Shown here one piece after another: positions 14,087 through 37,693 of a DNA stretch of 64,000 nucleotides; the first letter of the stretch is position 1; every line of letters begins with the position of its first letter. Location: NCBI RefSeq assembly GCF_013122565.1, contig NZ_CP053258.1, one strand, 5' to 3'. The notes under the pieces are model-generated. The model had not been told where the DNA came from, did not search any database, and was given only the letters and a program-made list of their open reading frames with translations. This stretch comes from Escherichia coli. Its GTDB lineage: Bacteria > Pseudomonadota > Gammaproteobacteria > Enterobacterales > Enterobacteriaceae. The position numbers and the translations under genes are program-made.

Positions 14087-14557
14087 ATGAAAACACAACG
14101 TGGTTATACGCTGATTGAAACGCTGGTCGCGATGCTGATTTTGGTCATGCTAAGTGCAAGTGGACTCTATGGCTGGCAATACTGGCAGCAGTCGCAACGG
14201 CTATGGCAAACCGCCAGCCAGGCGCGAGACTATTTGCTCTATTTACGTGAAGATGCCAACTGGCATAACCGCGACCACAGTATCAGCGTTATCAGGGAGG
14301 GGACGTTATGGTGCCTTGTGAGTTCCGCTGCTGGGGCGAATACTTGTCATGGCAGTTCACCATTGGTCTTTGTGCCACGCTGGCCCGAAGTCGAAATGAG
14401 CGACCTGACACCTTCGCTTGCTTTCTTTGGCCTGCGCAATACCGCATGGGCCGGGCATATTCGCTTCAAAAACTCAACGGGCGAGTGGTGGCTGGTGGTT
14501 TCGCCGTGGGGAAGACTCCGGCTTTGTCAGCAAGGAGAAACAGAAGGATGCCTGTAA
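14087..14557 (+). CDS. ppdA: Prepilin peptidase-dependent protein A (type IV pseudopilin-like)
   Basis: 156 aa; N-terminal prepilin motif [16 protein letters not shown]. Confidence 0.88.
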
Positions 14558-15111
14558 AAGAGCAAGGTTTTTCTCTGCTGGAAGTGTTGATTGCTATGGC
14601 GATCAGTAGCGTATTGTTGCTGGGGGCAGCACGCTTTCTGCCAGCGTTACAGCGTGAAAGTTTAACGAGCACCCGTAAGCTGGCGCTGGAAGATGAAATC
14701 TGGCTGCGGGTATTTACCGTCGCGAAGCATCTCCAGAGGGCGGGTTATTGTCATGGCAGCTGTACCGGCGAAGGGCTGGAAATTGTCGGACAGGGTGACT
14801 GTGTCATTGTGCAGTGGGATGCGAACAGTAACGGTATCTGGGATCGCGAACCGGTAAAAGAGTCCGACCAGATTGGATTTCGTCTGAAGGAGCATGTGCT
14901 GGAAACGCTACGCGGTGCGACATCCTGTGAAGGTAAGGGCTGGGATAAAGTCACTAATCCGGATGCCATCATTATCGACACTTTTCAGGTCGTACGTCAG
15001 GATGTCAGCGGCTTCTCGCCGGTGTTGACGGTTAATATGCGTGCTGCCAGTAAGTCTGAACCGCAAACCGTGGTGAATGCCAGCTATAGCGTGACAGGAT
15101 TCAACCTGTGA
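14548..15111 (+). CDS. ppdB: Prepilin peptidase-dependent protein B
   Basis: Start chosen at [19 protein letters not shown] (ATG 14548), which has a prepilin leader; the track ORF from 14308 is an in-frame upstream extension overlapping ppdA. Confidence 0.85.
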
Positions 15112-15515
15112 ACCGCGAAAAGGGTGTTTCGTCACTGGCTCTGGTCCTGATGTTGCTGGTTTTGGGTAGCTTGCTATTACAAGGAATGAGCCAACAGGAT
15201 CGCAGTTTTGCCTCTCGCGTGAGCATGGAAAGTCAGTCATTGCGCCGCCAGGCCATCGTTCAGTCGGCGCTGGCGTGGGGAAAAATGCACTCCTGGCAGA
15301 CGCAGCCAGCAGTTCAGTGCTCGCAGTACGCTGGAACCGATGCTCGGGTTTGTTTGCGTTTATTGGCAGATAATGAAGCCTTATTGATTGCCGGTTATGA
15401 AGGCGTTTCGTTGTGGCGAACAGGTGAAGTCATCGATGGAAACATTGGTTTTTCGCCACGCGGCTGGAGCGATTTTTGTCCGCTGAAAGAGGGGGCGTTA
15501 TGTCAGCTTCCCTGA
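15108..15515 (+). CDS. ygdB: Putative pseudopilin-associated protein
   Basis: 135 aa with N-terminal hydrophobic segment; overlaps ppdB stop (ATGA-type coupling); synteny. Confidence 0.8.
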
Positions 15516-15823
15516 AGAATCAACAAGGCTTTAGCCTGCCGGAGGTAATGTTGGCGATGGTGTTGATGGTGGTGATTGTCACTGCGTTATCGGGTTTCCA
15601 GCGAACATTAATGAACAGTCTTGCCAGCAGAAACCAGTACCAACAGCTCTGGCGGCATGGTTGGCAGCAAACGCAACTGCGCGCGATTTCGCCACCTGCA
15701 AACTGGCAGGTCAACCGAATGCAGACATCGCAGGCGGGATGTGTCAGCATCAGCGTTACGCTAGTTTCACCCGGGGGCAATGCAGGCGAGATGACCCGCC
15801 TGCATTGCCCGAATCGTCAGTAG
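15500..15823 (+). CDS. ppdC: Prepilin peptidase-dependent protein C
   Basis: Start at [20 protein letters not shown] (ATG 15500) with a prepilin motif; 107 aa. Confidence 0.85.
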
Positions 15824-15835
15824 TCAGGAGCCGCT

Positions 15836-18800
15836 ATGTTAAGGGTCTACCATTCCAATCGTCTGGACGTGCTGGAAGCGTTGATGGAGTTTATTGTCGA
15901 ACGCGAACGGCTGGACGATCCTTTCGAACCAGAGATGATTCTGGTGCAAAGTACCGGTATGGCACAGTGGCTGCAAATGACCCTGTCGCAAAAGTTTGGT
16001 ATTGCGGCAAACATTGATTTTCCGCTGCCAGCGAGCTTTATCTGGGATATGTTCGTCCGGGTGTTACCGGAGATCCCCAAAGAGAGTGCCTTTAACAAAC
16101 AGAGCATGAGCTGGAAACTGATGACTCTGCTGCCGCAATTGCTGGATCGCGAAGACTTTACCCTGCTGCGGCATTATCTGACTGACGATAGCGACAAGCG
16201 AAAACTGTTCCAGCTTTCCTCAAAAGCGGCGGACCTGTTTGACCAGTATCTGGTCTATCGTCCGGACTGGCTGGCACAGTGGGAAACAGGACATTTGGTT
16301 GAAGGGCTGGGAGAGGCACAGGCCTGGCAAGCGCCGTTGTGGAAGGCGCTGGTGGAATATACACATGAACTCGGACAACCGCGCTGGCACCGCGCCAATC
16401 TCTATCAGCGCTTTATCGAAACGCTGGAGTCCGCGACGACCTGCCCGCCGGGGTTACCTTCGCGCGTCTTTATATGCGGTATTTCCGCGTTACCGCCTGT
16501 TTATCTCCAGGCGCTCCAGGCGCTGGGTAAACATATTGAAATCCATCTCCTGTTTACCAACCCTTGCCGTTATTACTGGGGCGATATTAAAGATCCTGCT
16601 TATCTGGCGAAACTGCTGACCCGCCAGCGTCGACACAGTTTTGAAGATCGCGAATTGCCGCTATTTCGCGATAGCGAAAATGCCGGACAGCTCTTTAACA
16701 GCGACGGTGAACAGGATGTCGGCAACCCGCTACTGGCCTCCTGGGGCAAGTTGGGGCGCGACTATATCTATCTCCTTTCCGATCTGGAGAACAGTCAGGA
16801 GCTGGACGCCTTTGTCGATGTCACGCCAGATAACCTGCTGCATAACATTCAGTCTGACATTCTGGAACTGGAAAACCGCGCCGTTGCTGGTGTGAACATC
16901 GAAGAATTTTCTCGTAGCGATAACAAACGCCCGCTTGATCCACAAGATAACAGCGTCACCTTCCACGTATGCCACAGCCCGCAGCGTGAAGTTGAAGTTT
17001 TACACGATCGCCTGCTGGCGATGCTGGAGGAAGACCCGACACTTACTCCGCGCGACATCATCGTGATGGTGGCTGATATCGACAGCTACAGTCCGTTTAT
17101 TCAGGCTGTGTTTGGTAGCGCACCTGCGGATCGTTACCTGCCTTACGCCATTTCCGACCGTCGGGCGCGGCAGTCGCATCCTGTACTTGAAGCGTTTATC
17201 AGCCTGTTATCGTTGCCAGACAGCCGCTTTGTGTCGGAAGACGTGCTGGCATTACTGGATGTGCCGGTGCTGGCGGCGCGGTTTGACATCACCGAAGAAG
17301 GGCTGCGTTATTTACGCCAGTGGGTCAACGAATCCGGCATTCGTTGGGGGATAGATGACGACAACGTTCGCGAGCTGGAACTCCCCGCCACCGGACAACA
17401 CACCTGGCGATTTGGCCTGACGCGTATGTTGTTGGGTTACGCGATGGAGAGCGCGCAGGGCGAGTGGCAATCGGTTCTACCTTATGATGAATCGAGCGGC
17501 TTAATTGCAGAACTGGTGGGGCATCTGGCTTCCCTGCTAATGCAGCTAAACATCTGGCGTCGCGGGCTGGCACAGGAGCGTCCGCTGGAAGAGTGGTTGC
17601 CGGTTTGTCGCGATATGCTCAACGCCTTCTTCCTGCCGGATGCGGAAACCGAAGCGGCGATGACGCTGATCGAACAACAATGGCAGGCGATTATCGCCGA
17701 AGGTTTAGGTGCGCAGTATGGCGACGCGGTGCCGCTGTCACTATTGCGTGATGAACTGGCACAGCGTCTGGATCAAGAACGTATCAGCCAGCGTTTTCTC
17801 GCCGGACCGGTTAACATTTGTACTCTGATGCCAATGCGTTCAATTCCGTTCAAAGTGGTTTGCCTGCTGGGAATGAACGACGGCGTTTATCCACGTCAGC
17901 TTGCGCCATTGGGCTTTGACCTGATGAGCCAGAAACCGAAGCGTGGCGACCGTAGCCGTCGCGATGACGACCGCTACCTGTTCCTGGAAGCGTTAATTTC
18001 CGCGCAGCAAAAACTCTATATCAGCTATATCGGGCGTTCCATTCAGGATAACAGTGAACGTTTCCCGTCGGTACTGGTGCAGGAACTGATCGACTACATC
18101 GGGCAAAGTCATTATCTACCGGGCGATGAAGCGCTCAACTGTGATGAAAGCGAGGCAAGGGTAAAAGCGCATCTTACTTGCCTCCATACCCGGATGCCGT
18201 TTGATCCGCAAAACTACCAGCCAGGCGAACGACAAAGCTATGCTCGTGAATGGCTACCTGCGGCCAGCCAGGCTGGTAAAGCACATTCTGAATTTGTTCA
18301 GCCGCTGCCGTTTACCTTACCGGAAACCGTGCCGCTGGAAACGCTACAACGATTCTGGGCACATCCGGTGCGGGCGTTCTTCCAGATGCGTTTGCAGGTG
18401 AACTTCCGTACTGAAGACAGCGAAATCCCCGACACCGAGCCATTTATTCTGGAAGGGCTTAGCCGTTATCAAATCAATCAGCAGTTATTGAATGCACTGG
18501 TTGAGCAGGATGATGCCGAACGCTTGTTCCGCCGCTTCCGGGCGGCAGGGGATTTACCGTATGGCGCTTTTGGTGAAATTTTCTGGGAAACACAGTGCCA
18601 GGAGATGCAGCAGCTTGCCGACAGAGTCATTGCCTGTCGCCAGCCGGGGCAGAGTATGGAAATTGATCTCGCCTGCAACGGTGTGCAGATAACTGGCTGG
18701 TTGCCGCAGGTGCAGCCGGATGGCCTGTTGCGCTGGCGTCCCTCTTTATTAAGTGTGGCGCAGGGAATGCAACTTTGGCTGGAACACCTTGTCTACTGTG

Positions 18801-19204
18801 CCAGCGGTGGTAATGGTGAAAGTCGCCTTTTTCTACGCAAAGACGGCGAGTGGCGTTTTCCGCCGCTTGCAGCCGAACAGGCTTTGCATTACCTCTCACA
18901 ACTGATTGAGGGGTATCGTGAAGGGATGTCCGCGCCATTGCTGGTGTTACCTGAAAGTGGCGGCGCGTGGCTAAAAACCTGTTATGACGCGCAAAACGAT
19001 GCCATGCTGGATGACGATTCCACGTTGCAAAAAGCCCGTACGAAATTCCTTCAGGCTTACGAAGGCAACATGATGGTGCGTGGCGAAGGTGATGATATCT
19101 GGTATCAAAGGCTCTGGCGGCAATTAACACCAGAGACAATGGAGGCCATCGTTGAACAGTCGCAACGTTTCCTGTTACCGCTGTTTCGCTTTAATCAGTC
19201 ATGA
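15836..19204 (+). CDS. recC: Exodeoxyribonuclease V gamma subunit RecC
   Basis: 1122 aa ORF directly downstream of the ppd genes; synteny with ptrA, recB and recD. Confidence 0.93.
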   Translation: MLRVYHSNRLDVLEALMEFIVERERLDDPFEPEMILVQSTGMAQWLQMTLSQKFGIAANIDFPLPASFIWDMFVRVLPEIPKESAFNKQSMSWKLMTLLPQLLDREDFTLLRHYLTDDSDKRKLFQLSSKAADLFDQYLVYRPDWLAQWETGHLVEGLGEAQAWQAPLWKALVEYTHELGQPRWHRANLYQRFIETLESATTCPPGLPSRVFICGISALPPVYLQALQALGKHIEIHLLFTNPCRYYWGDIKDPAYLAKLLTRQRRHSFEDRELPLFRDSENAGQLFNSDGEQDVGNPLLASWGKLGRDYIYLLSDLENSQELDAFVDVTPDNLLHNIQSDILELENRAVAGVNIEEFSRSDNKRPLDPQDNSVTFHVCHSPQREVEVLHDRLLAMLEEDPTLTPRDIIVMVADIDSYSPFIQAVFGSAPADRYLPYAISDRRARQSHPVLEAFISLLSLPDSRFVSEDVLALLDVPVLAARFDITEEGLRYLRQWVNESGIRWGIDDDNVRELELPATGQHTWRFGLTRMLLGYAMESAQGEWQSVLPYDESSGLIAELVGHLASLLMQLNIWRRGLAQERPLEEWLPVCRDMLNAFFLPDAETEAAMTLIEQQWQAIIAEGLGAQYGDAVPLSLLRDELAQRLDQERISQRFLAGPVNICTLMPMRSIPFKVVCLLGMNDGVYPRQLAPLGFDLMSQKPKRGDRSRRDDDRYLFLEALISAQQKLYISYIGRSIQDNSERFPSVLVQELIDYIGQSHYLPGDEALNCDESEARVKAHLTCLHTRMPFDPQNYQPGERQSYAREWLPAASQAGKAHSEFVQPLPFTLPETVPLETLQRFWAHPVRAFFQMRLQVNFRTEDSEIPDTEPFILEGLSRYQINQQLLNALVEQDDAERLFRRFRAAGDLPYGAFGEIFWETQCQEMQQLADRVIACRQPGQSMEIDLACNGVQITGWLPQVQPDGLLRWRPSLLSVAQGMQLWLEHLVYCASGGNGESRLFLRKDGEWRFPPLAAEQALHYLSQLIEGYREGMSAPLLVLPESGGAWLKTCYDAQNDAMLDDDSTLQKARTKFLQAYEGNMMVRGEGDDIWYQRLWRQLTPETMEAIVEQSQRFLLPLFRFNQS

Positions 19205-19379
19205 GTGCTGTATAAAAATTGCGCAATCTATCCGCTTACTTTATGATGCGCACCAGTCACGGACTGATGGTTATATAAACATAGGCTGACTCGTGCAGCA
19301 CCAGATTAAATTTTGGCAGATGATTTGCGTTAACCTGTTGAATCTGGCCAGAAAATAAAGTTGATTATGAGGTCCGTGA

Positions 19380-22268
19380 ATGCCCCGCAGCACCTGGTTT
19401 AAAGCATTATTGTTGTTTGTTGCCCTCTGGGCACCCTTAAGTCAGGCAGAAACGGGATGGCAGCCGATTCAGGAAACCATCCGTAAAAGTGATAAAGATA
19501 ACCGCCAGTATCAGGCTATACGTCTGGATAACGGTATGGTGGTCTTGCTGGTTTCTGATCCGCAGGCAGTTAAATCGCTATCGGCGCTGGTGGTGCCCGT
19601 TGGGTCGCTGGAAGATCCCGAGGCGTACCAGGGGCTGGCACATTACCTTGAACATATGAGTCTGATGGGGTCGAAAAAGTACCCGCAGGCTGACAGTCTG
19701 GCCGAATATCTCAAAATGCACGGCGGTAGTCACAATGCCAGCACTGCGCCGTATCGCACGGCTTTCTATCTGGAAGTTGAGAACGACGCCTTGCCCGGTG
19801 CGGTAGACCGCCTGGCCGATGCTATTGCAGAACCCTTGCTCGACAAGAAATACGCCGAACGTGAGCGTAATGCAGTGAACGCTGAATTAACCATGGCGCG
19901 TACGCGTGACGGGATGCGCATGGCACAGGTCAGCGCAGAAACCATTAACCCGGCACACCCCGGTTCAAAGTTTTCTGGTGGTAACCTCGAAACTTTAAGC
20001 GATAAACCTGGTAATCCGGTGCAGCAGGCGCTGAAAGATTTCCACGAGAAGTACTATTCCGCCAATTTGATGAAGGCGGTTATTTACAGTAATAAACCGC
20101 TGCCGGAGTTGGCAAAAATGGCGGCGGACACCTTTGGTCGCGTGCCGAACAAAGAGAGCAAAAAACCGGAAATCACCGTGCCGGTAGTCACCGACGCGCA
20201 AAAGGGCATTATCATTCATTACGTCCCAGCGCTGCCGCGTAAAGTTCTGCGCGTTGAGTTTCGCATCGATAACAACTCAGCGAAGTTCCGCAGTAAAACG
20301 GATGAATTGATTACCTATCTGATTGGTAATCGCAGCCCAGGTACACTTTCTGACTGGCTGCAAAAGCAGGGATTAGTTGAGGGCATTAGCGCCAACTCCG
20401 ATCCTATCGTCAACGGCAACAGCGGTGTATTAGCGATCTCTGCGTCTTTAACCGATAAAGGTCTGGCGAATCGCGATCAGGTTGTGGCGGCCATTTTTAG
20501 CTACCTCAATCTGTTACGTGAAAAAGGGATCGATAAACAATACTTTGATGAACTGGCGAATGTGCTGGATATCGACTTCCGTTATCCGTCAATCACCCGT
20601 GATATGGATTACGTCGAATGGCTGGCAGATACCATGATTCGCGTTCCGGTTGAGCATACGCTGGATGCAGTCAATATTGCCGATCGGTACGATGCTAAAG
20701 CAGTAAAAGAACGTCTGGCGATGATGACGCCGCAGAATGCGCGTATCTGGTATATCAGCCCGAAAGAGCCGCACAATAAAACGGCTTATTTTGTCGATGC
20801 GCCGTATCAGGTCGATAAAATCAGCGAACAAACTTTCGCTGACTGGCAGCAAAAAGCTGCCAATATTGCGCTCTCCTTACCGGAGCTTAACCCCTATATT
20901 CCTGACGATTTCTCGCTGATTAAGTCAGAGAAGAAATATGACCATCCAGAGCTGATTGTTGATGAGTCGAATCTGCGCGTGGTGTATGCGCCAAGCCGTT
21001 ATTTTTCCAGCGAACCCAAAGCTGATGTCAGCCTGATTTTGCGTAATCCGAAAGCCATGGACAGCGCCCGCAATCAGGTGATGTTTGCGCTCAATGATTA
21101 TCTCGCAGGGCTGGCGCTTGATCAGTTAAGCAACCAGGCGTCGGTTGGTGGCATAAGTTTTTCCACCAACGCTAACAACGGCCTTATGGTTAATGCTAAT
21201 GGTTACACCCAGCGTCTGCCGCAGCTGTTCCAGGCATTGCTGGAGGGCTACTTTAGCTATACCGCCACGGAAGATCAGCTTCAGCAGGCAAAGTCCTGGT
21301 ATAACCAGATGATGGATTCCGCAGAAAAGGGCAAAGCGTTCGAGCAGGCGATTATGCCCGCGCAGATGCTCTCGCAAGTGCCGTACTTCTCGCGAGATGA
21401 ACGGCGCAAAATTTTGCCCTCCATTACGTTGAAAGAGGTACTGGCCTATCGCGACGCCTTAAAATCAGGGGCTCGACCAGAGTTTATGGTTATCGGCAAT
21501 ATGACCGAGGACCAGGCAACAACGCTGGCACGCGATGTGCAAAAACAGTTGGGCGCTGATGGTTCAGAGTGGTGTCGTAACAAAGATGTCGTGGTCGATA
21601 AAAAACAATCCGTCATCTTTGAAAAAGCTGGTAACAGCACCGACTCCGCACTGGCAGCGGTATTTGTACCGACTGGCTACGATGAATACACCAGCTCAGC
21701 CTATAGCTCTCTGTTGGGGCAGATCGTACAGCCGTGGTTCTACAATCAGTTGCGTACCGAAGAACAGTTGGGCTATGCCGTGTTTGCGTTTCCAATGAGC
21801 GTGGGGCGTCAGTGGGGCATGGGCTTCCTTTTGCAAAGCAATGATAAACAGCCTTCATTCTTGTGGGAGCGTTACAAGGCGTTTTTCCCAACCGCAGAGG
21901 CAAAATTGCGGGCGATGAAGCCAGAAGAGTTTGCGCAAATCCAGCAGGCGGTAATTACCCAGATGCTGCAGGCACCGCAAACGCTCGGCGAAGAAGCATC
22001 GAAGTTAAGTAAAGATTTCGATCGCGGCAATATGCGCTTCGATTCGCGTGATAAAATCGTGGCCCAGATAAAACTGCTGACGCCGCAAAAACTTGCTGAT
22101 TTCTTCCATCAGGCGGTGGTCGAGCCGCAAGGCATGGCTATTCTGTCGCAGATTTCCGGCAGCCAGAACGGGAAAGCCGAATATGTGCATCCTGAAGGCT
22201 GGAAAGTGTGGGAGAACGTCAGCGCGTTGCAGCAAACAATGCCCCTGATGAGTGAAAAGAATGAGTGA
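19380..22268 (+). CDS. ptrA: Protease III (pitrilysin), M16 zinc metalloprotease
   Basis: 962 aa; signal peptide; inverted zinc motif HYLEHM present. Confidence 0.93.
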   Translation: MPRSTWFKALLLFVALWAPLSQAETGWQPIQETIRKSDKDNRQYQAIRLDNGMVVLLVSDPQAVKSLSALVVPVGSLEDPEAYQGLAHYLEHMSLMGSKKYPQADSLAEYLKMHGGSHNASTAPYRTAFYLEVENDALPGAVDRLADAIAEPLLDKKYAERERNAVNAELTMARTRDGMRMAQVSAETINPAHPGSKFSGGNLETLSDKPGNPVQQALKDFHEKYYSANLMKAVIYSNKPLPELAKMAADTFGRVPNKESKKPEITVPVVTDAQKGIIIHYVPALPRKVLRVEFRIDNNSAKFRSKTDELITYLIGNRSPGTLSDWLQKQGLVEGISANSDPIVNGNSGVLAISASLTDKGLANRDQVVAAIFSYLNLLREKGIDKQYFDELANVLDIDFRYPSITRDMDYVEWLADTMIRVPVEHTLDAVNIADRYDAKAVKERLAMMTPQNARIWYISPKEPHNKTAYFVDAPYQVDKISEQTFADWQQKAANIALSLPELNPYIPDDFSLIKSEKKYDHPELIVDESNLRVVYAPSRYFSSEPKADVSLILRNPKAMDSARNQVMFALNDYLAGLALDQLSNQASVGGISFSTNANNGLMVNANGYTQRLPQLFQALLEGYFSYTATEDQLQQAKSWYNQMMDSAEKGKAFEQAIMPAQMLSQVPYFSRDERRKILPSITLKEVLAYRDALKSGARPEFMVIGNMTEDQATTLARDVQKQLGADGSEWCRNKDVVVDKKQSVIFEKAGNSTDSALAAVFVPTGYDEYTSSAYSSLLGQIVQPWFYNQLRTEEQLGYAVFAFPMSVGRQWGMGFLLQSNDKQPSFLWERYKAFFPTAEAKLRAMKPEEFAQIQQAVITQMLQAPQTLGEEASKLSKDFDRGNMRFDSRDKIVAQIKLLTPQKLADFFHQAVVEPQGMAILSQISGSQNGKAEYVHPEGWKVWENVSALQQTMPLMSEKNE

Positions 22269-25200
22269 TGTCGCCGAGACACTAGATCCTTTGCGCTTGC
22301 CCTTACAAGGCGAGCGCCTGATTGAAGCCTCTGCCGGCACAGGCAAAACCTTTACGATTGCGGCGCTCTATTTGCGCCTGTTACTTGGACTAGGCGGTTC
22401 CGCCGCCTTTCCCCGCCCGCTGACCGTTGAAGAACTGCTGGTGGTCACCTTTACCGAGGCTGCCACGGCAGAATTGCGCGGTCGTATCCGTAGCAATATC
22501 CACGAGTTGCGCATCGCCTGTCTGCGTGAAACCACCGACAATCCACTGTACGAACGCCTGCTGGAAGAGATCGACGATAAAGCGCAAGCCGCGCAGTGGT
22601 TGTTGTTAGCCGAACGGCAGATGGATGAAGCGGCAGTCTTTACTATTCACGGCTTTTGCCAGCGCATGCTCAACCTGAATGCCTTTGAATCCGGCATGCT
22701 GTTTGAGCAGCAGCTGATTGAAGATGAGTCTCTGCTACGCTACCAGGCCTGCGCCGATTTCTGGCGTCGCCACTGCTACCCGCTGCCGCGTGAAATAGCC
22801 CAGGTCGTCTTTGAAACCTGGAAAGGGCCGCAGGCGTTGCTGCGCGATATTAATCGTTACCTGCAAGGCGAAGCGCCGGTTATCAAAGCACCGCCGCCCG
22901 ATGATGAAACGCTGGCTTCCCGCCACGCGCAAATTGTGGCGCGTATTGATACGGTAAAACAGCAGTGGCGCGACGCAGCGGGTGAACTGGATGCGCTGAT
23001 CGAATCTTCTGGTATTGATCGACGCAAGTTTAACCGTAGCAATCAGGCTAAATGGATCGAGAAGATCAGCGCCTGGGCAGAAGAAGAGACCAACAGTTAT
23101 CAGTTGCCAGAGTCGCTGGAAAAATTCTCTCAGCGTTTCTTAGAAGATCGCACGAAAGCCGGGGGGGAAACCCCACGACATCCACTGTTTGAGGCGATCG
23201 ATCAACTGCTTGCAGAACCATTGTCGATCCGCGATCTGGTGATCACCCGCGCATTGGCTGAGATCCGCGAAACAGTAGCGCGCGAAAAACGTCGTCGTGG
23301 CGAATTGGGTTTTGACGACATGTTAAGTCGGCTCGATTCCGCGCTGCGTAGCGAAAGCGGCGAGGTGTTGGCAGCGGCGATCCGTACGCGATTCCCGGTG
23401 GCAATGATCGATGAATTTCAGGATACCGACCCCCAGCAGTACCGAATTTTTCGCCATATCTGGCACCATCAGCCGGAAACCGCATTGTTGCTAATTGGCG
23501 ACCCGAAGCAGGCCATATATGCATTCCGGGGTGCGGATATCTTCACTTATATGAAGGCGCGTAGCGAAGTTCACGCCCACTACACTTTAGACACCAACTG
23601 GCGTTCCGCACCAGGAATGGTGAACAGCGTGAACAAGCTTTTCAGCCAGACTGATGACGCGTTCATATTTCGCGAAATACCGTTTATTCCAGTGAAATCA
23701 GCCGGGAAAAATCAGGCGTTACGTTTTGTATTTAAAGGTGAAACGCAGCCTGCGATGAAAATGTGGCTGATGGAAGGCGAAAGCTGCGGCGTTGGCGACT
23801 ATCAAAGTACCATGGCGCAGGTATGTGCTGCGCAAATCCGCGACTGGCTACAAGCCGGACAGCGGGGCGAAGCGTTGCTGATGAACGGCGACGAAGCGCG
23901 TCCGGTGCGTGCTTCGGACATCAGTGTGCTGGTGCGCAGCCGCCAGGAGGCCGCCCAGGTGCGCGATGCCTTAACGTTGCTGGAAATCCCTTCCGTTTAC
24001 CTTTCGAACCGCGACAGTGTTTTTGAAACTCTGGAAGCGCAGGAAATGCTTTGGTTGTTGCAGGCGGTGATGACGCCCGAACGTGAGAACACCCTGCGCA
24101 GTGCGCTGGCAACGTCAATGATGGGGCTGAATGCGCTGGATATTGAAACGCTGAACAATGACGAACATGCGTGGGATGCGATAGTTGAAGAGTTCGATGG
24201 TTATCGGCAAATCTGGCGCAAACGTGGCGTTATGCCGATGCTGCGGGCGCTGATGTCGGCGCGTAACATTGCAGAAAACTTGCTGGCAACGGCAGGCGGT
24301 GAGCGGCGTCTTACCGATATCTTGCATATCAGCGAACTGCTTCAAGAAGCCGGAACGCAGCTGGAAAGTGAACATGCGCTGGTACGCTGGTTATCGCAAC
24401 ATATCCTCGAGCCAGACAGTAATGCCTCCAGCCAACAAATGCGCCTCGAAAGTGATAAACATCTTGTGCAGATTGTCACGATCCATAAATCAAAAGGGCT
24501 GGAATATCCGCTTGTCTGGTTGCCATTTATTACCAATTTCCGCGTCCAGGATCAGGCGTTTTATCACGATCGCCACTCGTTTGAGGCTGTTCTGGATCTT
24601 AACGCTGCGCCAGAAAGTGTCGATCTCGCGGAGGCCGAACGTCTGGCGGAAGATCTGCGTTTGCTTTACGTGGCGCTGACGCGTTCGGTTTGGCATTGTA
24701 GTCTCGGCGTTGCACCGCTGGTGCGCCGTCGTGGCGATAAAAAAGGTGACACCGACGTCCACCAAAGTGCGCTCGGGCGTTTGCTGCAAAAAGGGGAACC
24801 GCAAGATGCGGCAGGGCTTCGCACCTGTATTGAAGCGTTATGCGATGATGATATTGCCTGGCAAACGGCACAAACTGGTGATAACCAGCCCTGGCAGGTT
24901 AATGATGCTTTAACTGCAGAACTGAATGCGAGGACGCTACAACGATTGCCCGGCGATAACTGGCGTGTCACCAGCTACTCCGGATTGCAGCAGCGTGGTC
25001 ACGGTATCGCTCAGGATCTGATGCCACGGCTGGATGTTGATGCCGCAGGCGTGGTCAGCGTCGTTGACGAACCGACGTTAACACCTCATCAGTTCCCGCG
25101 CGGTGCGTCACCGGGGACATTCTTGCACAGTTTGTTTGAAGACCTCGATTTTACCCAGCCGGTTGACCCGAACTGGGTACAGGAAAAACTGGAACTCGGC

Positions 25201-25803
25201 GGCTTTGAATCGCAGTGGGAACCGGTGTTGACCGAGTGGATCACGGCTGTCCTCCAGGCACCTCTCAATGAAACCGGCGTAAGCCTGAGTCAACTTTCCG
25301 CCCGCAATAAACAGGTGGAGATGGAGTTTTATCTGCCGATTAGTGAACCGCTTATCGCCAGTCAGCTTGATACGTTAATCCGCCAGTTTGACCCGCTATC
25401 CGCTGGCTGCCCGCCGCTGGAGTTCATGCAGGTACGCGGCATGTTAAAAGGCTTTATCGACCTTGTGTTCCGCCACGAAGGGCGTTATTACCTGCTCGAT
25501 TATAAATCCAACTGGTTGGGTGAAGACAGTTCGGCTTACACCCAACAGGCTATGGCAGCGGCAATGCAGGCACACCGCTATGATCTGCAATATCAGCTTT
25601 ATACCCTGGCGCTGCATCGTTATCTGCGCCATCGCATTGCTGATTACGACTATGAGCGCCACTTTGGCGGCGTTATTTATCTGTTCCTGCGTGGCGTTGA
25701 TAAAGAACATCCGCAACAGGGGATTTACACAACCCGACCCAACGCCGAGTTGATTGCCCTGATGGATGAGATGTTTGCCGGTATGACCCTGGAGGAGGCG
25801 TAA
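22261..25803 (+). CDS. recB: Exodeoxyribonuclease V beta subunit RecB (helicase-nuclease)
   Basis: Start at [13 protein letters not shown] (ATG 22261), overlapping the ptrA stop by 8 nt; Walker A ASAGTGKT; 1180 aa. Confidence 0.93.
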
Positions 25804-27629
25804 TGAAATTGCAAAAGCAATTACTGGAAGCTGTGGAGCACAAACAGCTACGCCCGCTGGACGTGCAGTTTGCCCTGACCGTAGCGGGAGATGAACATCC
25901 TGCCGTCACCCTCGCGGCGGCACTATTAAGTCATGATGCCGGAGAGGGACACGTTTGTTTGCCGCTTTCACGACTGGAAAATAACGAGGCGTCGCATCCG
26001 CTGTTGGCGACCTGTGTCAGTGAAATCGGTGAGCTACAAAATTGGGAAGAATGCTTGCTGGCTTCACAAGCGGTCAGCCGGGGAGATGAACCAACGCCGA
26101 TGATCCTCTGTGGCGATCGTCTTTATTTGAATCGCATGTGGTGTAACGAACGTACGGTGGCACGCTTTTTCAACGAAGTGAATCATGCCATTGAGGTTGA
26201 TGAAGCTCTACTGGCGCAAACCCTGGACAAACTTTTTCCAGTAAGCGATGAAATTAACTGGCAAAAAGTTGCGGCGGCAGTGGCGCTGACGCGGCGGATC
26301 TCGGTGATTTCCGGCGGCCCTGGCACCGGTAAAACGACCACCGTGGCGAAGTTGCTGGCAGCGTTAATTCAAATGGCCGACGGCGAACGCTGCCGTATCC
26401 GTCTGGCTGCACCAACGGGTAAAGCTGCCGCGCGCTTAACCGAATCTCTCGGCAAGGCTTTGCGACAGTTACCGCTGAGCGATGAACAAAAGAAACGCAT
26501 TCCGGAAGATGCCAGTACTTTGCACCGATTGCTGGGTGCACAGCCGGGTAGCCAGCGTTTACGTCATCATGCCGGTAACCCGCTGCATCTTGATGTGCTG
26601 GTGGTAGATGAAGCGTCAATGATCGATCTGCCGATGATGTCGAGACTGATAGACGCCTTGCCCGATCATGCGCGAGTGATCTTTCTCGGCGATCGTGATC
26701 AACTGGCCTCGGTTGAGGCGGGGGCTGTGCTGGGCGATATTTGTGCTTATGCCAATGCCGGCTTTACCGCCGAGCGTGCCGGGCAGTTAAGCCGCCTGAC
26801 GGGAACTCACGTTCCGGCAGGAACTGGCACAGAAGCGGCATCTTTGCGCGACAGTCTCTGCCTGCTGCAAAAAAGCTATCGTTTCGGCAGCGATTCTGGC
26901 ATTGGTCAGTTAGCTGCGGCGATCAACCGTGGTGATAAAACGGCAGTGAAAACCGTTTTTCAGCAGGATTTTACTGATATCGAAAAACGGCTTTTACAGA
27001 GCGGCGAAGATTATATTGCGATGCTTGAGGAAGCTCTTGCGGGTTACGGACGTTATCTGGATCTGCTGCAAGCGCGTGCCGAGCCGGATTTAATCATTCA
27101 AGCGTTCAATGAGTACCAGCTTTTGTGCGCCCTGCGGGAAGGGCCGTTTGGCGTGGCTGGACTGAATGAGCGAATTGAGCAGTTTATGCAACAGAAGCGC
27201 AAAATTCATCGTAATCCGCACTCTCGTTGGTACGAAGGCCGACCGGTGATGATTGCCCGTAATGACAGCGCGCTTGGGTTGTTTAATGGCGATATCGGTA
27301 TTGCGCTGGATCGCGGGCAGGGGACGCGCGTCTGGTTTGCGATGCCGGACGGCAATATTAAGTCTGTGCAACCGAGTCGTTTGCCAGAGCACGAAACTAC
27401 GTGGGCGATGACGGTACATAAATCGCAGGGATCGGAGTTCGACCATGCGGCGTTGATTTTGCCGAGCCAACGCACGCCGGTAGTAACGCGAGAGCTGGTT
27501 TATACCGCGGTGACCCGCGCGCGTCGCCGTCTGTCGCTGTATGCCGATGAGCGCATATTAAGTGCGGCAATCGCCACTCGTACTGAGCGGCGCAGTGGTC
27601 TGGCGGCGTTGTTTAGTTCACGGGAATAA
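25803..27629 (+). CDS. recD: Exodeoxyribonuclease V alpha subunit RecD
   Basis: 608 aa; Walker [11 protein letters not shown]; start overlaps the recB stop by 1 nt (TAATG). Confidence 0.93.
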
Positions 27630-27635
27630 ACGTAA

Positions 27636-27680
27636 TTGCCGGATGCGACGTACGAGTGTTACGCATGTCGCATCCGACGA
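27636..27680. repeat. REP-like palindrome between convergent recD and argA
   Basis: Inverted repeat CGGATGCGAC (27640-27649) / GTCGCATCCG (27667-27676). Confidence 0.6.
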
Positions 27681-27690
27681 TTTTCATCGC

Positions 27691-29022
27691 TTACCCTAAA
27701 TCAGCCATCAACACTTTGGATTTACGCTGGTAGTTGTACAACTGCTTTTTGCTTTCGGGCAGTAAATCAATATCCACTGGGGTAAATCCACGTTCCTGGA
27801 ACCAGTGAATACTGCGCGTGGTCAGCACAAACAATTTGCTTAAGCCGCTCTGCTTCGCCTGAGCGGCAATGCGTTCCAGCAGAACCTCGCCCCGTGATGA
27901 GCTGCGGTAATCCGGGTGAACTGCCACACAGGCCATTTCCCCAATCTTCTCTTCCGGGAACGGATAGAGCGCGGCGCAGGCAATAGTCGTGTTATCGCGC
28001 TGAATAATGGTGAATTTGTCGATTTCCATCTCCAGCTGCTCGCGAGAACGGCGTACCAGAATACCTTGCTGCTCCAGCGGGCGAATCAACTCCAGAATAC
28101 CGCCGATATCGTTGATTGTTGCGCGACGAATCTGCTCGGCGCTTTCCATCACAATCTGCGTACCGATACCGTCGCGTGAGAACAACTCTTGCAACAGCGC
28201 GCCATCTTCCTGATAACTGATTAAATGACAGCGACGCACGCCGCTGCGGCAGGCTTTCACTGCGCCACGCAAAAAGCGCACCGTACCGGAGTTGTAATCG
28301 CCTTTCTCTTCCTGGGCTTCTACCCGCGCTTGTGCTTCGTTAGGGAAAAGTTCGGAGACAATATCACCGTCGTCATTAGTGACGCCCTGGGAAGAGCAAA
28401 AACCAATCATCTTTTCAGCTTTCAGTTTGATGGCCAGTTGAGTGGCAATCTCTTCCGAGGTCAGATTAAAGCTCTCGCCAGTGACTGAAACAGCGACCGG
28501 CCCCATTAGCACTATTGCACCGCTGTCCAGTTGACGATGGATCGCGTCTTCATCAATCCGCCGGATACGCCCGCTATGGCAGTAATCCACGCCGTCATCG
28601 ACGCCCAGCGGCTGGGCAATAATAAAATTGCCACTGACGACGTTGATATGCGCGCCCTGCAGCGGCGTGTTATTGAGACTCATCGACAGGCGAGCAGTAA
28701 TATCCAGTTGCAATGTTCCTGCAGCCTGCTTCACTAGTTCCAGTGTTTTGGCGTCGGTCACACGTATATTCTTGTGATACAGCGGTTCGTGGTGATGCGC
28801 AGCCAGATTTGCGTCGATCTGCGGACGTGCGCCATAGACCACCACCAGACGGATGCCGAGGCTGTGCAACAACCCGATATCATTAACGATACTGGAGAAA
28901 TTCTCATGCTCAATGGCTTCACCGCCGAGCATGATGACAAACGTTTTTCCCCGGTGGGTATTGATATAGGGAACCGAATGGCGGAATCCCTCGACCAGCT
29001 CGGTTTTACGTTCCTTTACCAC
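27691..29022 (-). CDS. argA: N-acetylglutamate synthase
   Basis: Start set at a GTG (29020-29022) giving [20 protein letters not shown]..., 443 aa as I recall for ArgA; the track ORF extends 22 codons upstream. Confidence 0.88.
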
Positions 29023-29253
29023 GGCACACCTCTTTGCATGATTATTCGAAATTATTGTATTTTTATTCTGTTTTTTCGCAGGGTGCAAGTGTAAATTTTA
29101 TGCGAGAGCGACTTTTTTATCAGTAATGCCGTGAATATAAAAAGAATGTTTACCGTTTATTAGATGACAGATTATGCGTCTTTCGCTAAAGTTTCCGGTC
29201 AAATTAGTCGTTTACTTGTTACACAGCTTAGATTTCTTTTGCTCGGGAGAGGC

Positions 29254-30507
29254 ATGTCAGGATCCAACACTGCAATCAGCCGTCGTCGTTTACTGCAAGG
29301 CGCGGGCGCCATGTGGCTATTGAGCGTAAGTCAGGTCAGTCTGGCTGCGGTCAGCCAGGTCGTGGCGGTGCGCGTCTGGCCTGCGTCCAGCTACACCCGT
29401 GTGACGGTAGAATCAAATCGTCAGCTGAAATATAAGCAGTTCGCGTTGAGTAACCCGGAACGCGTGGTGGTGGATATCGAAGATGTAAACCTGAACTCGG
29501 TACTCAAGGGGATGGCGGCACAAATTCGTGCAGACGACCCGTTCATCAAGTCGGCGCGCGTCGGGCAATTTGACCCGCAGACCGTACGCATGGTTTTTGA
29601 ATTAAAGCAAAACGTAAAACCGCAGCTGTTTGCCCTTGCGCCGGTCGCCGGGTTTAAAGAGCGTCTGGTGATGGACCTCTATCCGGCCAATGCACAGGAT
29701 ATGCAGGACCCGCTGCTGGCGCTGCTGGAGGATTACAACAAAGGCGACCTCGAAAAGCAGGTGCCGCCAGCGCAAAGTGGTCCACAACCGGGTAAAGCAG
29801 GGCGCGATCGTCCGATTGTCATTATGCTTGACCCTGGCCACGGTGGCGAAGACTCCGGTGCGGTGGGGAAATACAAAACGCGCGAAAAAGATGTGGTATT
29901 GCAAATAGCTCGCCGTTTGCGCTCTCTGATCGAGAAAGAGGGCAATATGAAGGTGTACATGACGCGCAATGAAGACATCTTCATTCCGTTGCAAGTGCGC
30001 GTAGCAAAAGCCCAGAAACAGCGTGCTGACCTGTTTGTCTCTATCCATGCCGACGCCTTTACCAGTCGCCAGCCGAGCGGTTCCTCGGTGTTTGCGCTCT
30101 CAACCAAAGGCGCAACCAGTACTGCGGCAAAATATCTGGCACAAACCCAGAACGCCTCGGACTTGATTGGTGGCGTGAGCAAAAGCGGTGACCGCTATGT
30201 CGACCACACCATGTTCGATATGGTGCAGTCGCTGACCATTGCCGACAGCCTTAAGTTTGGTAAAGCGGTGCTGAATAAGCTCGGTAAAATCAACAAGCTG
30301 CATAAAAATCAAGTTGAACAGGCCGGGTTTGCCGTACTAAAGGCACCAGATATTCCCTCCATTCTGGTCGAAACGGCGTTTATCAGTAACGTTGAGGAAG
30401 AGCGTAAACTGAAAACGGCGACCTTCCAGCAGGAAGTTGCGGAGTCTATTCTTGCGGGGATTAAAGCGTATTTTGCCGATGGGGCGACGCTGGCGAGAAG
30501 GGGATGA
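29254..30507 (+). CDS. amiC: N-acetylmuramoyl-L-alanine amidase AmiC (Tat-exported)
   Basis: Start at [21 protein letters not shown] (twin-arginine signal), ATG 29254; amidase_3 domain; 417 aa. Confidence 0.9.
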
Positions 30508-30682
30508 TGTTTTTAATTTATTCAATGAATTTATGTTTCATTGAATAAATATTATTTACATAAATGTTGAACGATGGTTTTGTGACTGCTGTCGAATATT
30601 TGAATATCGGCTTAAAAAATAAGCCTGCCATCTCTTTTATTAAGCACAATTCCGTGTAAGGTATACGCATTAGTTAATTATC

Positions 30683-30765: not shown

Positions 30766-31590
30766 ATGATCATCGAAAAAGTCATGAACAATAATTGTGT
30801 ACAGGCATCGGTGAACGGACAGGAGGTTATCATTTCTGGGCCTGGCGTTGGTTACAATAAAAAATATGGTATGTCGGTCCCTGAACATCCTGCAAACCGG
30901 ATTTTTTATGTCAGAAATGAGCAAAAAAATAAACTCTACAAATTGATTGAGCATGTGGGTATTGAGTATATTTTTGTTGCCGAAAAGATAGTGCATTATG
31001 CGGAGAGTAATCTCGAAAAAAAACTCAATCCATCGCTACTACTGATTCTTGCTGATCACATTTCGAATGCAATATCCCGAGTCGTCTCAGGCATACAAAT
31101 TAATAATGTTTTCCTTGAGGAAATCAAAGCGTTGTACAAAGCAGAGTATGCAATAAGTCGTGATGCATTAACAATCATTAATGAGCAATTTAGCGTTCAA
31201 CTACCGGATGATGAGATTGGTTTTATAGCATTGCATATTTTAAATAATTATGAGAATTCAGTTGATTATGAATCAGTACGGATTATTGAGCTGTCTCAAA
31301 AAATCACGGAGCTTATTGAAGTAGTTTATAACAGAAGAGTGGACAGAAGTTCATTTAACTACTCCAGATTTATGATGCACCTTAAATATTTTTCTAGTCG
31401 TGTGTTATGTAATGAAAAAATAAAACAGAAAAATATTGGTGATATCTATGAGCAGTTTCTTGAAAAAGATTTTCAGTTACAACGTGCCATTCATGAAATT
31501 GAAAGATATCTGTACGCAACTTTTAAATATGATTTGATTCTGGAAGAAAAACTATATCTTTCTATTCGCATCAAAGTATTAATGGACTAA
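30766..31590 (+). CDS. BglG/LicT-family transcription antiterminator (CAT RNA-binding domain plus two PRD domains)
   Basis: Start at MIIEKVMNNNCVQASVNGQEVIISGPGVGY (CAT-domain pattern) with RBS GGAG 8 nt upstream; PRD-like histidines (LILADHISN, IALHILNN); about 274 aa; AT-rich codon usage. Confidence 0.75.
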   Translation: MIIEKVMNNNCVQASVNGQEVIISGPGVGYNKKYGMSVPEHPANRIFYVRNEQKNKLYKLIEHVGIEYIFVAEKIVHYAESNLEKKLNPSLLLILADHISNAISRVVSGIQINNVFLEEIKALYKAEYAISRDALTIINEQFSVQLPDDEIGFIALHILNNYENSVDYESVRIIELSQKITELIEVVYNRRVDRSSFNYSRFMMHLKYFSSRVLCNEKIKQKNIGDIYEQFLEKDFQLQRAIHEIERYLYATFKYDLILEEKLYLSIRIKVLMD

Positions 31591-31621
31591 TTATACATAA
31601 CATTTTCATGAGATAACCCGT

Positions 31622-33202
31622 ATGAAACAAAAGAAAGCCTGGAGTTTTTTTCAGAGCCTGGGGAAGGCATTTATGTATCCCATCGCTCTGTTAAGTGTAT
31701 GTGGTATGATGTTAGGGCTGGGAAGTGGTTTAGCCAGCGATGATATGGCAAAATTAATTCCAGTGTTGGCTATTCCGTTAATTAAAACCATACTTGATTT
31801 TATTGTTAGCCTTGGTTTGTTTGCCTTCGTTAATTTACCTGTATTGTTTGCGATAGCTATACCTTTGGGATTATTAAAAGAGAAAGATGATAAAGCCTAT
31901 GGCGCTTTTTCTGGCTTAATTGGCTTTATGGCGATGCATCTTGGAACGAACTTTTATCTTAAACAGCACGACTTATTGGTAGCTGCTGACCAAATGTCGA
32001 CACATGGGCAAACCATCATACTCGGGATCCAGTCATACAATACCAGCGTGTTGGGTGGGATTGTGGCAGGGTTATTAGTCGCCAGCATGTATAAAAAGAT
32101 CGTTAACTTACGTATTCCTGAATCATTAGGGTTTTATAGTGGCCCACGCCTGGTGCCTATCATTACACTGATTGTGATGAGTGGATTTGGTCTGATCATT
32201 CCTTTTATCTGGCCGCCATTTTTCAATCTTTTCATGCTCATTGGTCACTGGATTTCAACTTCCGGTCCTGTTGGTTATTTCTTCTATGCTGTTGCCGAAC
32301 GCGTGACGATACCTTTTGGCTTAAATCACTTGGTGACATCAGTTTTCCGCTTTACCCCAATCGGCGGATCGGCAGTGATTGGCGGTGAAGAGTATTACGG
32401 CACCCTGAACATGTTTATGGCATACGTCAAAGAGAATGCGGTCATTCCGCTGGATTTGGCGGGGAAAATGGAGCAGGGCAAACTGATGATTCAGTATGGT
32501 CTGGCTGGAGCCGCGCTGGCGATGTATCGCACTGCTCATGCTCAAAACAGAAGGGCTATCAAAGCATTGCTGATTTCCGGTGTGCTCACGGTAATTATTG
32601 GCGGCGTCAGCGAGCCGATTGAATTTCTGTTCTTATTTGTCAGCCCGCTGTTGTTTGTCTTCCATGCCTTTATGAATGGATTGGCTAACATGGTTCTGCC
32701 ATATATGGGCGTGAAGATGGGCTTTACTGGCGATCTGATTCAATTTATTAGCTTTGGTGTCTTACGTGGCACAAGAACGGGATGGCCATTAGCGGTATGT
32801 GTTGAAGTGGCTTATTTCTTCATTTATTACTTTGTGTTCCGTTGGACCATTCTCAAATTTAACCTGATGACTGTAGGCCGTGAAGAGTCCAGTCCTGTCA
32901 CGCTGAACGCTCACGAAGAAACTGCAATAGCTAACATCCCAGTTCATGATAAATCAGAGTTGCAGGCAGCGGAGCAAATGGTTAAGGCTCTGGGTGGTAA
33001 AGAAAATATTAAATCACTGGATAATTGTGTAACTCGTTTGCGTTTAACTATCGCGGATATGGGATTGATAGATGAGGCTGCAATAAAAAGGGCCGGAGGA
33101 ATTGCGGTTGTGAAACTTGATCAAAATACCTTACAAGTCATTATCGGTACAAAAGTCATCGCACTACGTCGGGATATGGATAACTACATGGGGATATGTT
33201 GA
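31622..33202 (+). CDS. PTS EIICB component, glucose/maltose (MalX-like) family
   Basis: 526 aa; N-terminus FFQSLGKAFMYPIALLSVCGMMLGLGS and C-terminal EIIB motif SLDNCVTRLRL closely resemble MalX/PtsG as I remember them; no EIIA domain. Confidence 0.8.
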   Translation: MKQKKAWSFFQSLGKAFMYPIALLSVCGMMLGLGSGLASDDMAKLIPVLAIPLIKTILDFIVSLGLFAFVNLPVLFAIAIPLGLLKEKDDKAYGAFSGLIGFMAMHLGTNFYLKQHDLLVAADQMSTHGQTIILGIQSYNTSVLGGIVAGLLVASMYKKIVNLRIPESLGFYSGPRLVPIITLIVMSGFGLIIPFIWPPFFNLFMLIGHWISTSGPVGYFFYAVAERVTIPFGLNHLVTSVFRFTPIGGSAVIGGEEYYGTLNMFMAYVKENAVIPLDLAGKMEQGKLMIQYGLAGAALAMYRTAHAQNRRAIKALLISGVLTVIIGGVSEPIEFLFLFVSPLLFVFHAFMNGLANMVLPYMGVKMGFTGDLIQFISFGVLRGTRTGWPLAVCVEVAYFFIYYFVFRWTILKFNLMTVGREESSPVTLNAHEETAIANIPVHDKSELQAAEQMVKALGGKENIKSLDNCVTRLRLTIADMGLIDEAAIKRAGGIAVVKLDQNTLQVIIGTKVIALRRDMDNYMGIC

Positions 33203-34410: not shown

Positions 34411-34975
34411 ACATTTTATGCGTAACGAACATAAAGCAGTAGAAGAGGTTATTGATTCCCCCCTTTCGGAAGTCGCGAATTTAATTAAAATATTACAATC
34501 TTGCCAGGGAAAAGTTGTTTTTATTGGTGTTGGGAAATCTGGCATTATTGCCAGAAAACTTGCTGCAACATTTGCCAGCACCGGAACTCCCTCGTTTTTT
34601 GTTCACGGTACGGAAGCGGTACACGGCGACCTTGGGATGGTGGCGAAAGACGATGTTGTTATTCTTATTTCAAACAGTGGTGAGACGGCGGAAATCCTGG
34701 CGACACTGCCTAGTTTGAAAAAAATGGGTAATTATTTGATCTCTTTTACCCGCAGTCATCACTCATCGCTTGCGATAAGTTGTGATTTATCTGTTGAAAT
34801 CCCCGTCAAAAGTGAGGCGGATAATTTAGGTTTAGCACCGTCATGCTCGTCTACTGTTGTTCTGGTTGTTGGTGATGCGGTGGCGCTTGCACTCTCTGAA
34901 TTGAAAAAATTTACTCGTGCTGATTTCGGCTTATATCATCCAGGAGGTGCACTCGGCATTAAAGCAAATTCATAA
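34379..34975 (+). CDS. SIS-domain sugar-phosphate isomerase (KdsD/GutQ-type SIS without CBS domains; candidate arabinose-5-phosphate isomerase)
   Basis: 198 aa; VFIGVGKSGIIARKLAATFASTGTPSFFVHGTEAVHGDLGMV matches the N-terminal SIS domain of arabinose-5-P isomerases; no CBS tail; RBS AGGA upstream; overlaps the upstream gene by 32 nt. Confidence 0.75.
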   Translation: MNNTDLIHLIKHFMRNEHKAVEEVIDSPLSEVANLIKILQSCQGKVVFIGVGKSGIIARKLAATFASTGTPSFFVHGTEAVHGDLGMVAKDDVVILISNSGETAEILATLPSLKKMGNYLISFTRSHHSSLAISCDLSVEIPVKSEADNLGLAPSCSSTVVLVVGDAVALALSELKKFTRADFGLYHPGGALGIKANS

Positions 34976-35046
34976 TTTCAAAGTATAAATACAGTAACCG
35001 GTCACGCCATCTTTTGGGGTGGCGTTCATTGAAGTGAGTGTCAGCT

Positions 35047-35994: not shown

Positions 35995-36020
35995 GTTCAG
36001 CGAACGAAGTTTTTAAATAC

Positions 36021-36062: not shown

Positions 36063-36139
<77 letters not shown>

Positions 36140-37641: not shown

Positions 37642-37693
37642 ATTATGCGTTTAGGGTGAGGGATAACCTCACCCTTTTTAATTCAGAGGTGCT

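Follow-up and report, generated by a model that had tools for sequence, protein, structure and literature searches.

The recC-ptrA-recB-recD region

The window, a stretch of 64,000 nucleotides from Escherichia coli contig NZ_CP053258.1, carries recC, ptrA, recB and recD in that order on one strand, with ppdC and argA as the flanking genes, as judged from the open reading frames and the collinear RefSeq annotation. Scores for RecC, pitrilysin, RecB and RecD all exceeded the NCBIfam equivalog cut-offs (1470, 765, 1697 and 671 bits, respectively). In the literature, recC forms a separate operon upstream and ptrA-recB-recD is polycistronic. The features considered here are as follows.

15836..19204, + strand: recC, RecBCD gamma subunit (NCBIfam equivalog NF008289, 2130 bits; RefSeq annotation)
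19205..19379, + strand: recC-ptrA intergenic region, 175 nt, with the ptrA-recB-recD promoter and 5'UTR (sequence; promoter position from PMC12342828)
19330..19365, + strand: homologue of the 36-nt Hfq-binding site published for the ptrA 5'UTR (3 mismatches to K-12)
19380..22268, + strand: ptrA, pitrilysin/protease III, a periplasmic M16 metalloprotease (NCBIfam NF011681, 1856 bits; RefSeq)
22252..22254, + strand: GTG in frame with recB, start of the mechanical open reading frame (ORF list)
22261..22268, + strand: ptrA/recB overlap ATGAGTGA (recB ATG 22261-22263, ptrA TGA 22266-22268)
22261..25803, + strand: recB, RecBCD beta subunit (NCBIfam NF008128, 2338 bits)
25791..25798, + strand: recD Shine-Dalgarno motif GGAGGAGG in the last recB codons (duplex energy and conservation)
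25801..25805, + strand: recB/recD overlap TAATG (recB TAA 25801-25803, recD ATG 25803-25805)
25803..27629, + strand: recD, RecBCD alpha subunit (NCBIfam NF008127, 1137 bits; RefSeq)

The sequence and ORF list bear out the original prediction on the layout of the locus. The recB ATG at 22261 lies 8 nt inside the end of ptrA, the recD ATG overlaps the recB stop by the single common base 25803, and a protease gene is embedded between recC and recB. The PtrA N-terminus, MPRSTWFKALLLFVALWAPLSQA/ET, resembles a Sec signal peptide when read by eye. Junction distances were +175 (recC-ptrA), -8 (ptrA-recB) and -1 (recB-recD), identical to those of K-12, and both overlapping junctions are co-directional and within the -8 to +6 nt stop-start range of PMC10666635.

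The in-frame GTG at 22252 was rejected as the recB start: it is missing in the many species in which the aligned ATG opens recB, and the protein read from that ATG matches the NCBIfam model from its first residue. Programmed frameshifting at GAAAAGAAUGAGUGA was likewise rejected because inspection by eye found no X XXY YYZ slippery heptamer. An antisense open reading frame of 113 aa with a TTG start (22005..22346) is a mechanical ORF within two conserved genes.

The locus matches the K-12 recC and ptrA-recB-recD genes (b2819-b2822) in gene content, order, strand, relative coordinates, junction distances and Hfq site. In a collinear E. coli genome in RefSeq, the relative coordinates and overlaps of all four genes were identical. 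Differences from K-12 were confined to sequence divergence; the best-matching complete E. coli genome shared 98.4% identity across 15 kb.

No other type of junction is as common in bacterial operons as overlapping stop and start codons. Of the 28 neighbouring gene pairs that run in the same direction within the first 46 kb of the collinear E. coli annotation, 10 overlapped, including three at -8 and three at -1; as a feature, the overlaps seen here are not unusual beyond chance. In E. coli K-12 the three commonest distances are -4, -1 and -8, and 707 of 2,987 unidirectional pairs fall at -8 to +6 (PMC10666635). The K-12 table lists ptrA-recB at -8 and recB-recD at -1 (PMC10666635 Suppl. Table 2), the recB/recD overlap has been described and exploited for building fusions (PMC2586629), and a 2025 eLife paper suggested ptrA-recB translational coupling. 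This is the ordinary layout of the E. coli RecBCD locus, and of closely packed bacterial operons generally, and its overlaps, operon structure and coupling hypothesis have all been published previously.

Retention of the overlaps across species

A RecB homology search gave only matches of at least 86% identity (Escherichia, Citrobacter), and the wider phylogeny was covered through representative proteins and their encoding contigs. The comparison set comprised loci from 80 Enterobacteriaceae species with RecB 68-97% identical. The ptrA/recB overlap was present at 78 of 80 loci and the recB/recD overlap at all 78 scorable loci. Distances from the ptrA stop to the recB start were -4 in 45 loci, -8 in 31, -20 in 2, and +2 and +413 in one each; the -8 count is 33 once the window and locus L001 are added. 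From the recB stop to the recD start, distances were -4 in 69 of the 78 loci and -1 in 9 (11 with the same two additions). These counts indicate that the overlaps are evolutionarily retained, with their exact geometry shifting among -1, -4 and -8. The recC-ptrA gap varied, mostly between 110 and 186 nt, the outliers being 15 and 1665 nt. ptrA lay directly 5' of recB at 80/80 loci, and recC lay 5' of ptrA wherever the flank was long enough.

Some genomes have lost an overlap. Intestinirhabdus alba carries a 413-nt spacer ahead of recB, with AGAGGA 6 nt ahead of the ATG, Tatumella has no ptrA and a recC-recB distance of +45, and the recB-recD distance in reduced symbionts is +16 to +192. The genes are intact in all of these, indicating that the overlap is dispensable in nature.

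Operons of the recC-recB-recD type, without ptrA, are found in Pseudomonas syringae and Aeromonas caviae. As in the window, recB and recD overlap there and the recB start is overlapped by the stop of the upstream gene; the Enterobacteriaceae differ in having ptrA in the upstream position and recC as a separate transcription unit. In A. caviae the recC-recB and recB-recD distances were -1 and -4, and in a metagenomic contig -4 and -7. Across 1,695 prokaryotic genomes, the median distance was -4 both for RecB@RecD (quartiles -4, -1; n=318) and for RecC@RecB (n=258) (PMC10666635 Suppl. Table 4).

Shine-Dalgarno strength and proposed translational coupling

The anti-Shine-Dalgarno (anti-SD) duplex of recD, at -12.1 kcal/mol, was the strongest among 22 neighbouring genes, and that of recB, at -2.5 kcal/mol, was the second weakest. 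Over 79 loci the recB duplex had a median of -3.0 kcal/mol, and the recD SD was stronger than that of recB in 77/77 species. GGAG or GAGG preceded recD at 78/78 loci. Among 79 sequences, GGAG at -12 to -9 of recD carried 1.6-1.9 bits, compared to 0.1-0.7 bits in the flanks; it appears to be kept as a nucleotide motif although the surrounding RecB tail is poorly conserved. An SD within the upstream gene's 3' end, which is typical of coupled pairs but not obligatory, is present for recD and almost wholly lacking for recB. In 100-nt windows centred on the starts, there was no excess RNA folding over shuffled sequence (z = 0.12 and 0.08), and nothing obvious would block de novo initiation at either gene.

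The window holds the standard Escherichia ptrA-recB-recD operon, and in our reading its overlapping junctions probably work by reinitiation at recB and recD. The recB AUG, 5 nt ahead of the ptrA UGA, has essentially no SD, so initiation there would occur mainly by termination-reinitiation, as ribosomes finish ptrA. On this view, RecB output would amount to a small fraction of ptrA translation, and control by Hfq at the ptrA ribosome-binding site would be relayed to RecB. At the second junction a single A belongs both to the recB UAA and to the recD AUG, and the conserved, strong GGAGG 4-7 nt upstream, inside recB, may hold ribosomes terminating on recB for reinitiation, with RecB and RecD synthesis tending to similar levels. 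The same GGAGG would also permit independent initiation on recD, so this coupling is expected to be leaky. Actual reinitiation at both junctions, and its quantitative share, we infer.

Coupling at ptrA-recB and recB-recD is plausible in light of other operons. Oppenheim and Yanofsky reportedly showed genetically in 1980 that in the trp operon, where trpE-trpD and trpB-trpA have stop/start overlaps, downstream translation depends on upstream translation. The trp junctions likewise join overlapping cistrons for the subunits of one enzyme; there the coupling has genetic backing, and here it is predicted. Four of five native overlapping E. coli pairs were coupled, with coupling nearly gone at a distance of about 20 nt, and termination-reinitiation has been demonstrated by experiment for other native E. 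coli pairs over a range covering -8 and -1 (PMC6728339, PMC10666635). The coupled pairs of Huber et al. (2019, 2023; including hyfHI, astDB, menDH and ydbH/ynbE) resemble the window in having distances within -8 to +6. In the window, recD likewise has its SD inside the upstream gene, and recB/recD belongs to the enriched one-complex class. However, the pairs tested by Huber et al. had -4 overlaps, whereas in the window recB lacks an SD, the ptrA-recB products form no complex, and coupling is predicted.

A DNA search with the K-12 36-nt Hfq site gave 1 match in the window, with 0 expected by chance. In K-12, RecB yield rose from 7.9 to 16.3 proteins per mRNA when the Hfq site ahead of ptrA was deleted (PMC12342828). 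This doubling is consistent with recB translation depending on ptrA translation, although it can alternatively be explained through whole-mRNA effects without coupling. Cassettes inserted into recC and recB of Pseudomonas syringae had no polar effect on the genes downstream (PMC2828478). For E. coli, the literature searched yielded no explicit report of polarity of recB mutations on recD, and recB21 was described only as an IS186 insertion serving as a recBCD null. recB-recD fusion strains make wild-type-length RecD without recB termination, which was attributed to a minor internal promoter (PMC2586629); RecD production in these fusions speaks indirectly against a strict dependence of RecD on recB translation.

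Alternatives to reinitiation and possible consequences for RecBCD dosage

Overlaps could instead be passive by-products of operon compaction and stop/start drift, with recB and recD each initiated de novo and no regulatory consequence. We consider this unlikely, though it accounts for several observations: the very strong SD of recD and the RecD made in fusion strains, the flipping of geometry among -1, -4 and -8 between close relatives, the frequent overlaps of unrelated neighbours (the 10 of 28 pairs above), the loss of overlaps in I. alba, Tatumella and symbionts, and the absence of masking RNA structure at either start. The overlapping E. coli pair bioBF was also tested and found uncoupled (PMC6728339). 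However, passive drift fits poorly with overlaps kept in 78/80 and 78/78 species while the two protein tails and the recC-ptrA spacer are variable. Nearly all species lack a usable recB SD, and efficient de novo initiation is therefore unlikely. Short overlaps in E. coli are also 4.5-fold enriched for subunits of heteromeric complexes.

Upstream translation might also melt RNA structure covering the downstream start, so that new ribosomes enter in place of the same ribosome reinitiating. Coupling of this kind is an acknowledged alternative (PMC6728339), and the strong recD SD would suit de novo entry after exposure. The shuffled-level folding of the 100-nt windows, which reports on local structure only, and the lack of a recB SD for recruiting free 30S subunits make it improbable.

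A sigma-70 consensus scan detected nothing resembling a + strand promoter towards the 3' end of recB and no convincing internal terminator or promoter within the operon, but it missed both the reported minor recD promoter and the ptrA promoter and is too crude for its negatives to show absence. That recD is expressed mainly from its own promoter within recB, with the 1-nt overlap irrelevant for RecD levels, is very improbable: such a promoter has been reported and credited with the RecD of fusion strains, but the same study ranks it minor and the upstream promoter major (PMC2586629), the scan did not recover it, and the overlap and GGAG are conserved in 78/78 species.

Returning to reinitiation as the preferred reading, the original prediction held that coupling may help set subunit stoichiometry. 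PtrA is a periplasmic protease and not a RecBCD subunit, and this idea is therefore limited to recB-recD, which encode parts of one complex; the third subunit, RecC, comes from an operon of its own, 175 nt upstream. The recB-recD pair is flagged 'CMPLX yes' and ptrA-recB 'CMPLX not' (PMC10666635). Even between recB and recD, the stoichiometric role is weakened by the strength of the recD SD in its neighbourhood and by the independent production of RecD.

RecBCD is present in few molecules per cell (33-93 for RecB, according to a secondary source), and its over-expression has been reported to lower DNA repair efficiency. This makes the balance of the three subunits a genuine question, if a narrow one. 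With the overlaps, operon structure and coupling idea already in print, the present findings carry little weight as a discovery. This analysis adds the asymmetry between an SD-less recB and a strong-SD recD, the observation that the overlap follows whichever gene precedes recB, and the 80-species survey. We tentatively suggest, as a possibility, that recB is a cistron whose dependence on reinitiation has survived a gene rearrangement, in which ptrA replaced recC as the 'feeder' in Enterobacteriaceae, Hfq control is relayed to RecB over a 4-8-nt overlap, and a strong SD keeps RecD non-limiting. If so, the embedded protease gene would be no passive insertion but would contribute functionally to RecBCD dosage control.

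Overlapping junctions of ptrA, recB and recD

An 8-nt overlap between ptrA and recB and a 1-nt overlap between recB and recD had been read from the window sequence in the original prediction. Both were borne out by the following coordinates:

recC, 15836..19204, ending 175 nt before ptrA
ptrA, 19380..22268, with stop codon TGA at 22266-22268
recB, from ATG 22261 (in frame with the mechanical ORF start, GTG 22252) to stop codon TAA at 25801-25803
recD, starting at ATG 25803-25805

The 8 nt common to the end of ptrA and the start of recB are ATGAGTGA, and one base of TAATG is common to the recB TAA and the recD ATG. The RefSeq annotation of E. coli BS90R-A agrees: recC, ptrA, recB and recD lie at identical relative coordinates, with the 8-nt and 1-nt overlaps kept. 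All four products exceeded the NCBIfam equivalog cut-offs (RecC, pitrilysin, RecB and RecD), and PtrA has a Sec signal peptide-like N-terminus, judged by eye.

These overlaps are already known. For K-12, distances (negative, stop-to-start overlap; positive, gap) of +175 for recC-ptrA, -8 for ptrA-recB ('complex not') and -1 for recB-recD ('complex yes') are tabulated (PMC10666635 supplement), and the recB/recD overlap has been exploited for making recB-recD fusions (PMC2586629). [quoted passage not shown]

Nor are the overlaps unusual. In the first 46 kb, by the collinear BS90R-A annotation, overlaps occur in 10 of the 28 neighbouring pairs of co-directional genes; three are of 8 nt (aas/lplT, ptrA/recB and ygdD/rlmM) and three of 1 nt (recB/recD, a PTS EIIC/MalY pair and csdE/csdA). 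Directly upstream of recC, the genes ppdA-ppdB-ygdB-ppdC (14087-15835) have overlaps of 10, 4 and 16 nt. Over the whole E. coli genome, the three commonest distances are -4, -1 and -8, with 707 of 2,987 unidirectional pairs falling in the range from -8 to +6 (PMC10666635). The recC start is only 12 nt past ppdC, an adjacency also seen in Tatumella; this closeness raises the question of partial co-transcription of recC and the ppd genes.

The window among E. coli genomes

The 15-kb stretch around the junctions (15500-30600) had matches in 5,425 of 5,426 complete E. coli genomes, with a top identity of 98.4%, which is low given so dense a genome collection; the DNA may come from a lineage that the collection lacks, such as Shigella or a rare Escherichia lineage. 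The window was collinear with BS90R-A throughout (98.4-99.0% identity) and showed neither IS elements nor rearrangements. One tRNA-Met gene is present at 36073-36149, compared to three tandem copies in BS90R-A, leaving the region ~220 nt shorter. The mltA-tcdA intergenic region holds ~160 bp more than in BS90R-A (37507-37653); because this segment contains two inverted REP-like sequences, GCCGGATGCGGCGTGAACGCCTTATCCGGCCTACA and TGTAGGCCTGATAAGCGTAGCGCATCAGGC (identified by eye), it looks like a BIME-type insertion. A further block lies nearby:

five-gene block, ~30767-35995, from amiC to the tRNA-Met gene

It encodes a PRD-domain regulator, a PTS EIIC, a MalY/PatB-type protein, a KpsF/GutQ isomerase and a phosphoglycerate dehydrogenase. 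For K-12, mltA is listed as the protein-coding gene that adjoins amiC on the same strand (PMC10666635 supplement), so K-12 appears to be without the block, which would be a variable island beside a tRNA gene.

Conservation of the overlaps

A RecB scan of the genome collection gave 80 loci from 80 Enterobacteriaceae species (RecB 68-97% identical), in which gene ends and starts were placed by script using tblastn and frame extension. The immediate upstream partner of recB in this family is ptrA, which directly preceded it in 80/80 loci. The distance from ptrA stop to recB start was -4 (ATGA) in 45 loci and -8 in 31, the latter group taking in Escherichia, Citrobacter, Salmonella, Phytobacter and some Kosakonia. 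Two loci showed -20, where start assignment is uncertain, and single loci were non-overlapping at +2 and +413. From recB stop to recD start, the distance was -4 in 69 loci and -1 in nine (Escherichia, a few Citrobacter and two others); two were unscorable. The overlaps are thus retained, and their exact geometry drifts. In most of these loci the recC-ptrA spacer measured 110-186 nt; the outliers were 15 and 1665 nt.

The sole long ptrA-recB spacer, 413 nt in Intestinirhabdus alba (locus L018, 9588-10000), is GC-rich and apparently non-coding. AGAGGA lies 6 nt ahead of the conserved recB ATG there, a single case that is only suggestive; an additional in-frame ATG occurs 21 nt upstream of the recB start.

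Across 1,695 genomes, RecB@RecD (n=318) and RecC@RecB (n=258) both have a median of -4 with quartiles of -4 and -1 (PMC10666635). The distant RecB representatives that we sampled agreed with these medians: Aeromonas caviae showed -1 for recC-recB and -4 for recB-recD, and a metagenomic contig with a distant RecB showed -4 and -7. In P. syringae, the three reading frames of recC, recB and recD have been described as overlapping (PMC2828478). In free-living relatives, the stop of recB's immediate upstream partner usually overlaps the recB start. Tatumella (locus L084, 4581-13434) has the order thyA-ppd-recC-recB-recD-argA-amiC, the E. coli synteny without ptrA, with distances of +45 (recC-recB) and -8 (recB-recD); ptrA was therefore either lost in Tatumella (Erwiniaceae) or acquired once Enterobacteriaceae and Erwiniaceae had diverged. 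In reduced symbionts the overlap is gone: recB-recD gaps of +16 to +192 were found in Ca. Steffania, Serratia symbiotica and two further contigs, and a recD gene call downstream of recB was absent from an Arsenophonus MAG.

Start signals and possible translational coupling

Shine-Dalgarno strength was scored from the 20 nt ahead of each start against the 16S anti-SD sequence. Among 22 genes in the first 30 kb, recD scored strongest (-12.1 kcal/mol) and recB second weakest (-2.5 kcal/mol); cross-species medians were -9.9 and -3.0, and recD exceeded recB in 77/77 paired species. GGAG at -12..-9 of the recD ATG carried 1.6-1.9 bits, compared to 0.1-0.7 in the adjoining RecB tail codons, and is therefore conserved as a nucleotide signal. 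No comparable motif was found ahead of recB in the cross-species alignment. Masking structure was not detected: 100-nt windows around both starts did not exceed shuffled sequences in folding stability (z = 0.12 and 0.08). The two junctions differ in kind.

Most ribosomes translating recB would come from termination on ptrA, since recB lacks a Shine-Dalgarno motif and has its AUG 5 nt ahead of the ptrA stop. Translation of recD would be reinitiated by ribosomes ending on recB and held there by the strong Shine-Dalgarno motif. In favor of coupling, four of five native overlapping E. coli pairs are coupled, an effect that collapses once the distance reaches ~20 nt (PMC6728339, PMC10666635), complex subunits are 4.5-fold enriched among short E. 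coli overlaps, and deletion of the Hfq site before ptrA brought the number of RecB proteins per mRNA up from 7.9 to 16.3 (PMC12342828). [quoted passage not shown] The published 36-nt Hfq-binding site of the ptrA 5'UTR is present at 19330-19365 with 3 mismatches to K-12, a divergence of 8% compared to ~1.5% for the region.

The coupling interpretation, plausible and already put forward in the literature, is partly supported, and an ordinary operon architecture that would allow translational coupling is the best-supported reading. The further suggestion that the overlaps may help set subunit stoichiometry can hold for recB-recD only, because PtrA does not form part of the RecBCD complex and recC is, according to the literature, transcribed separately from ptrA-recB-recD.
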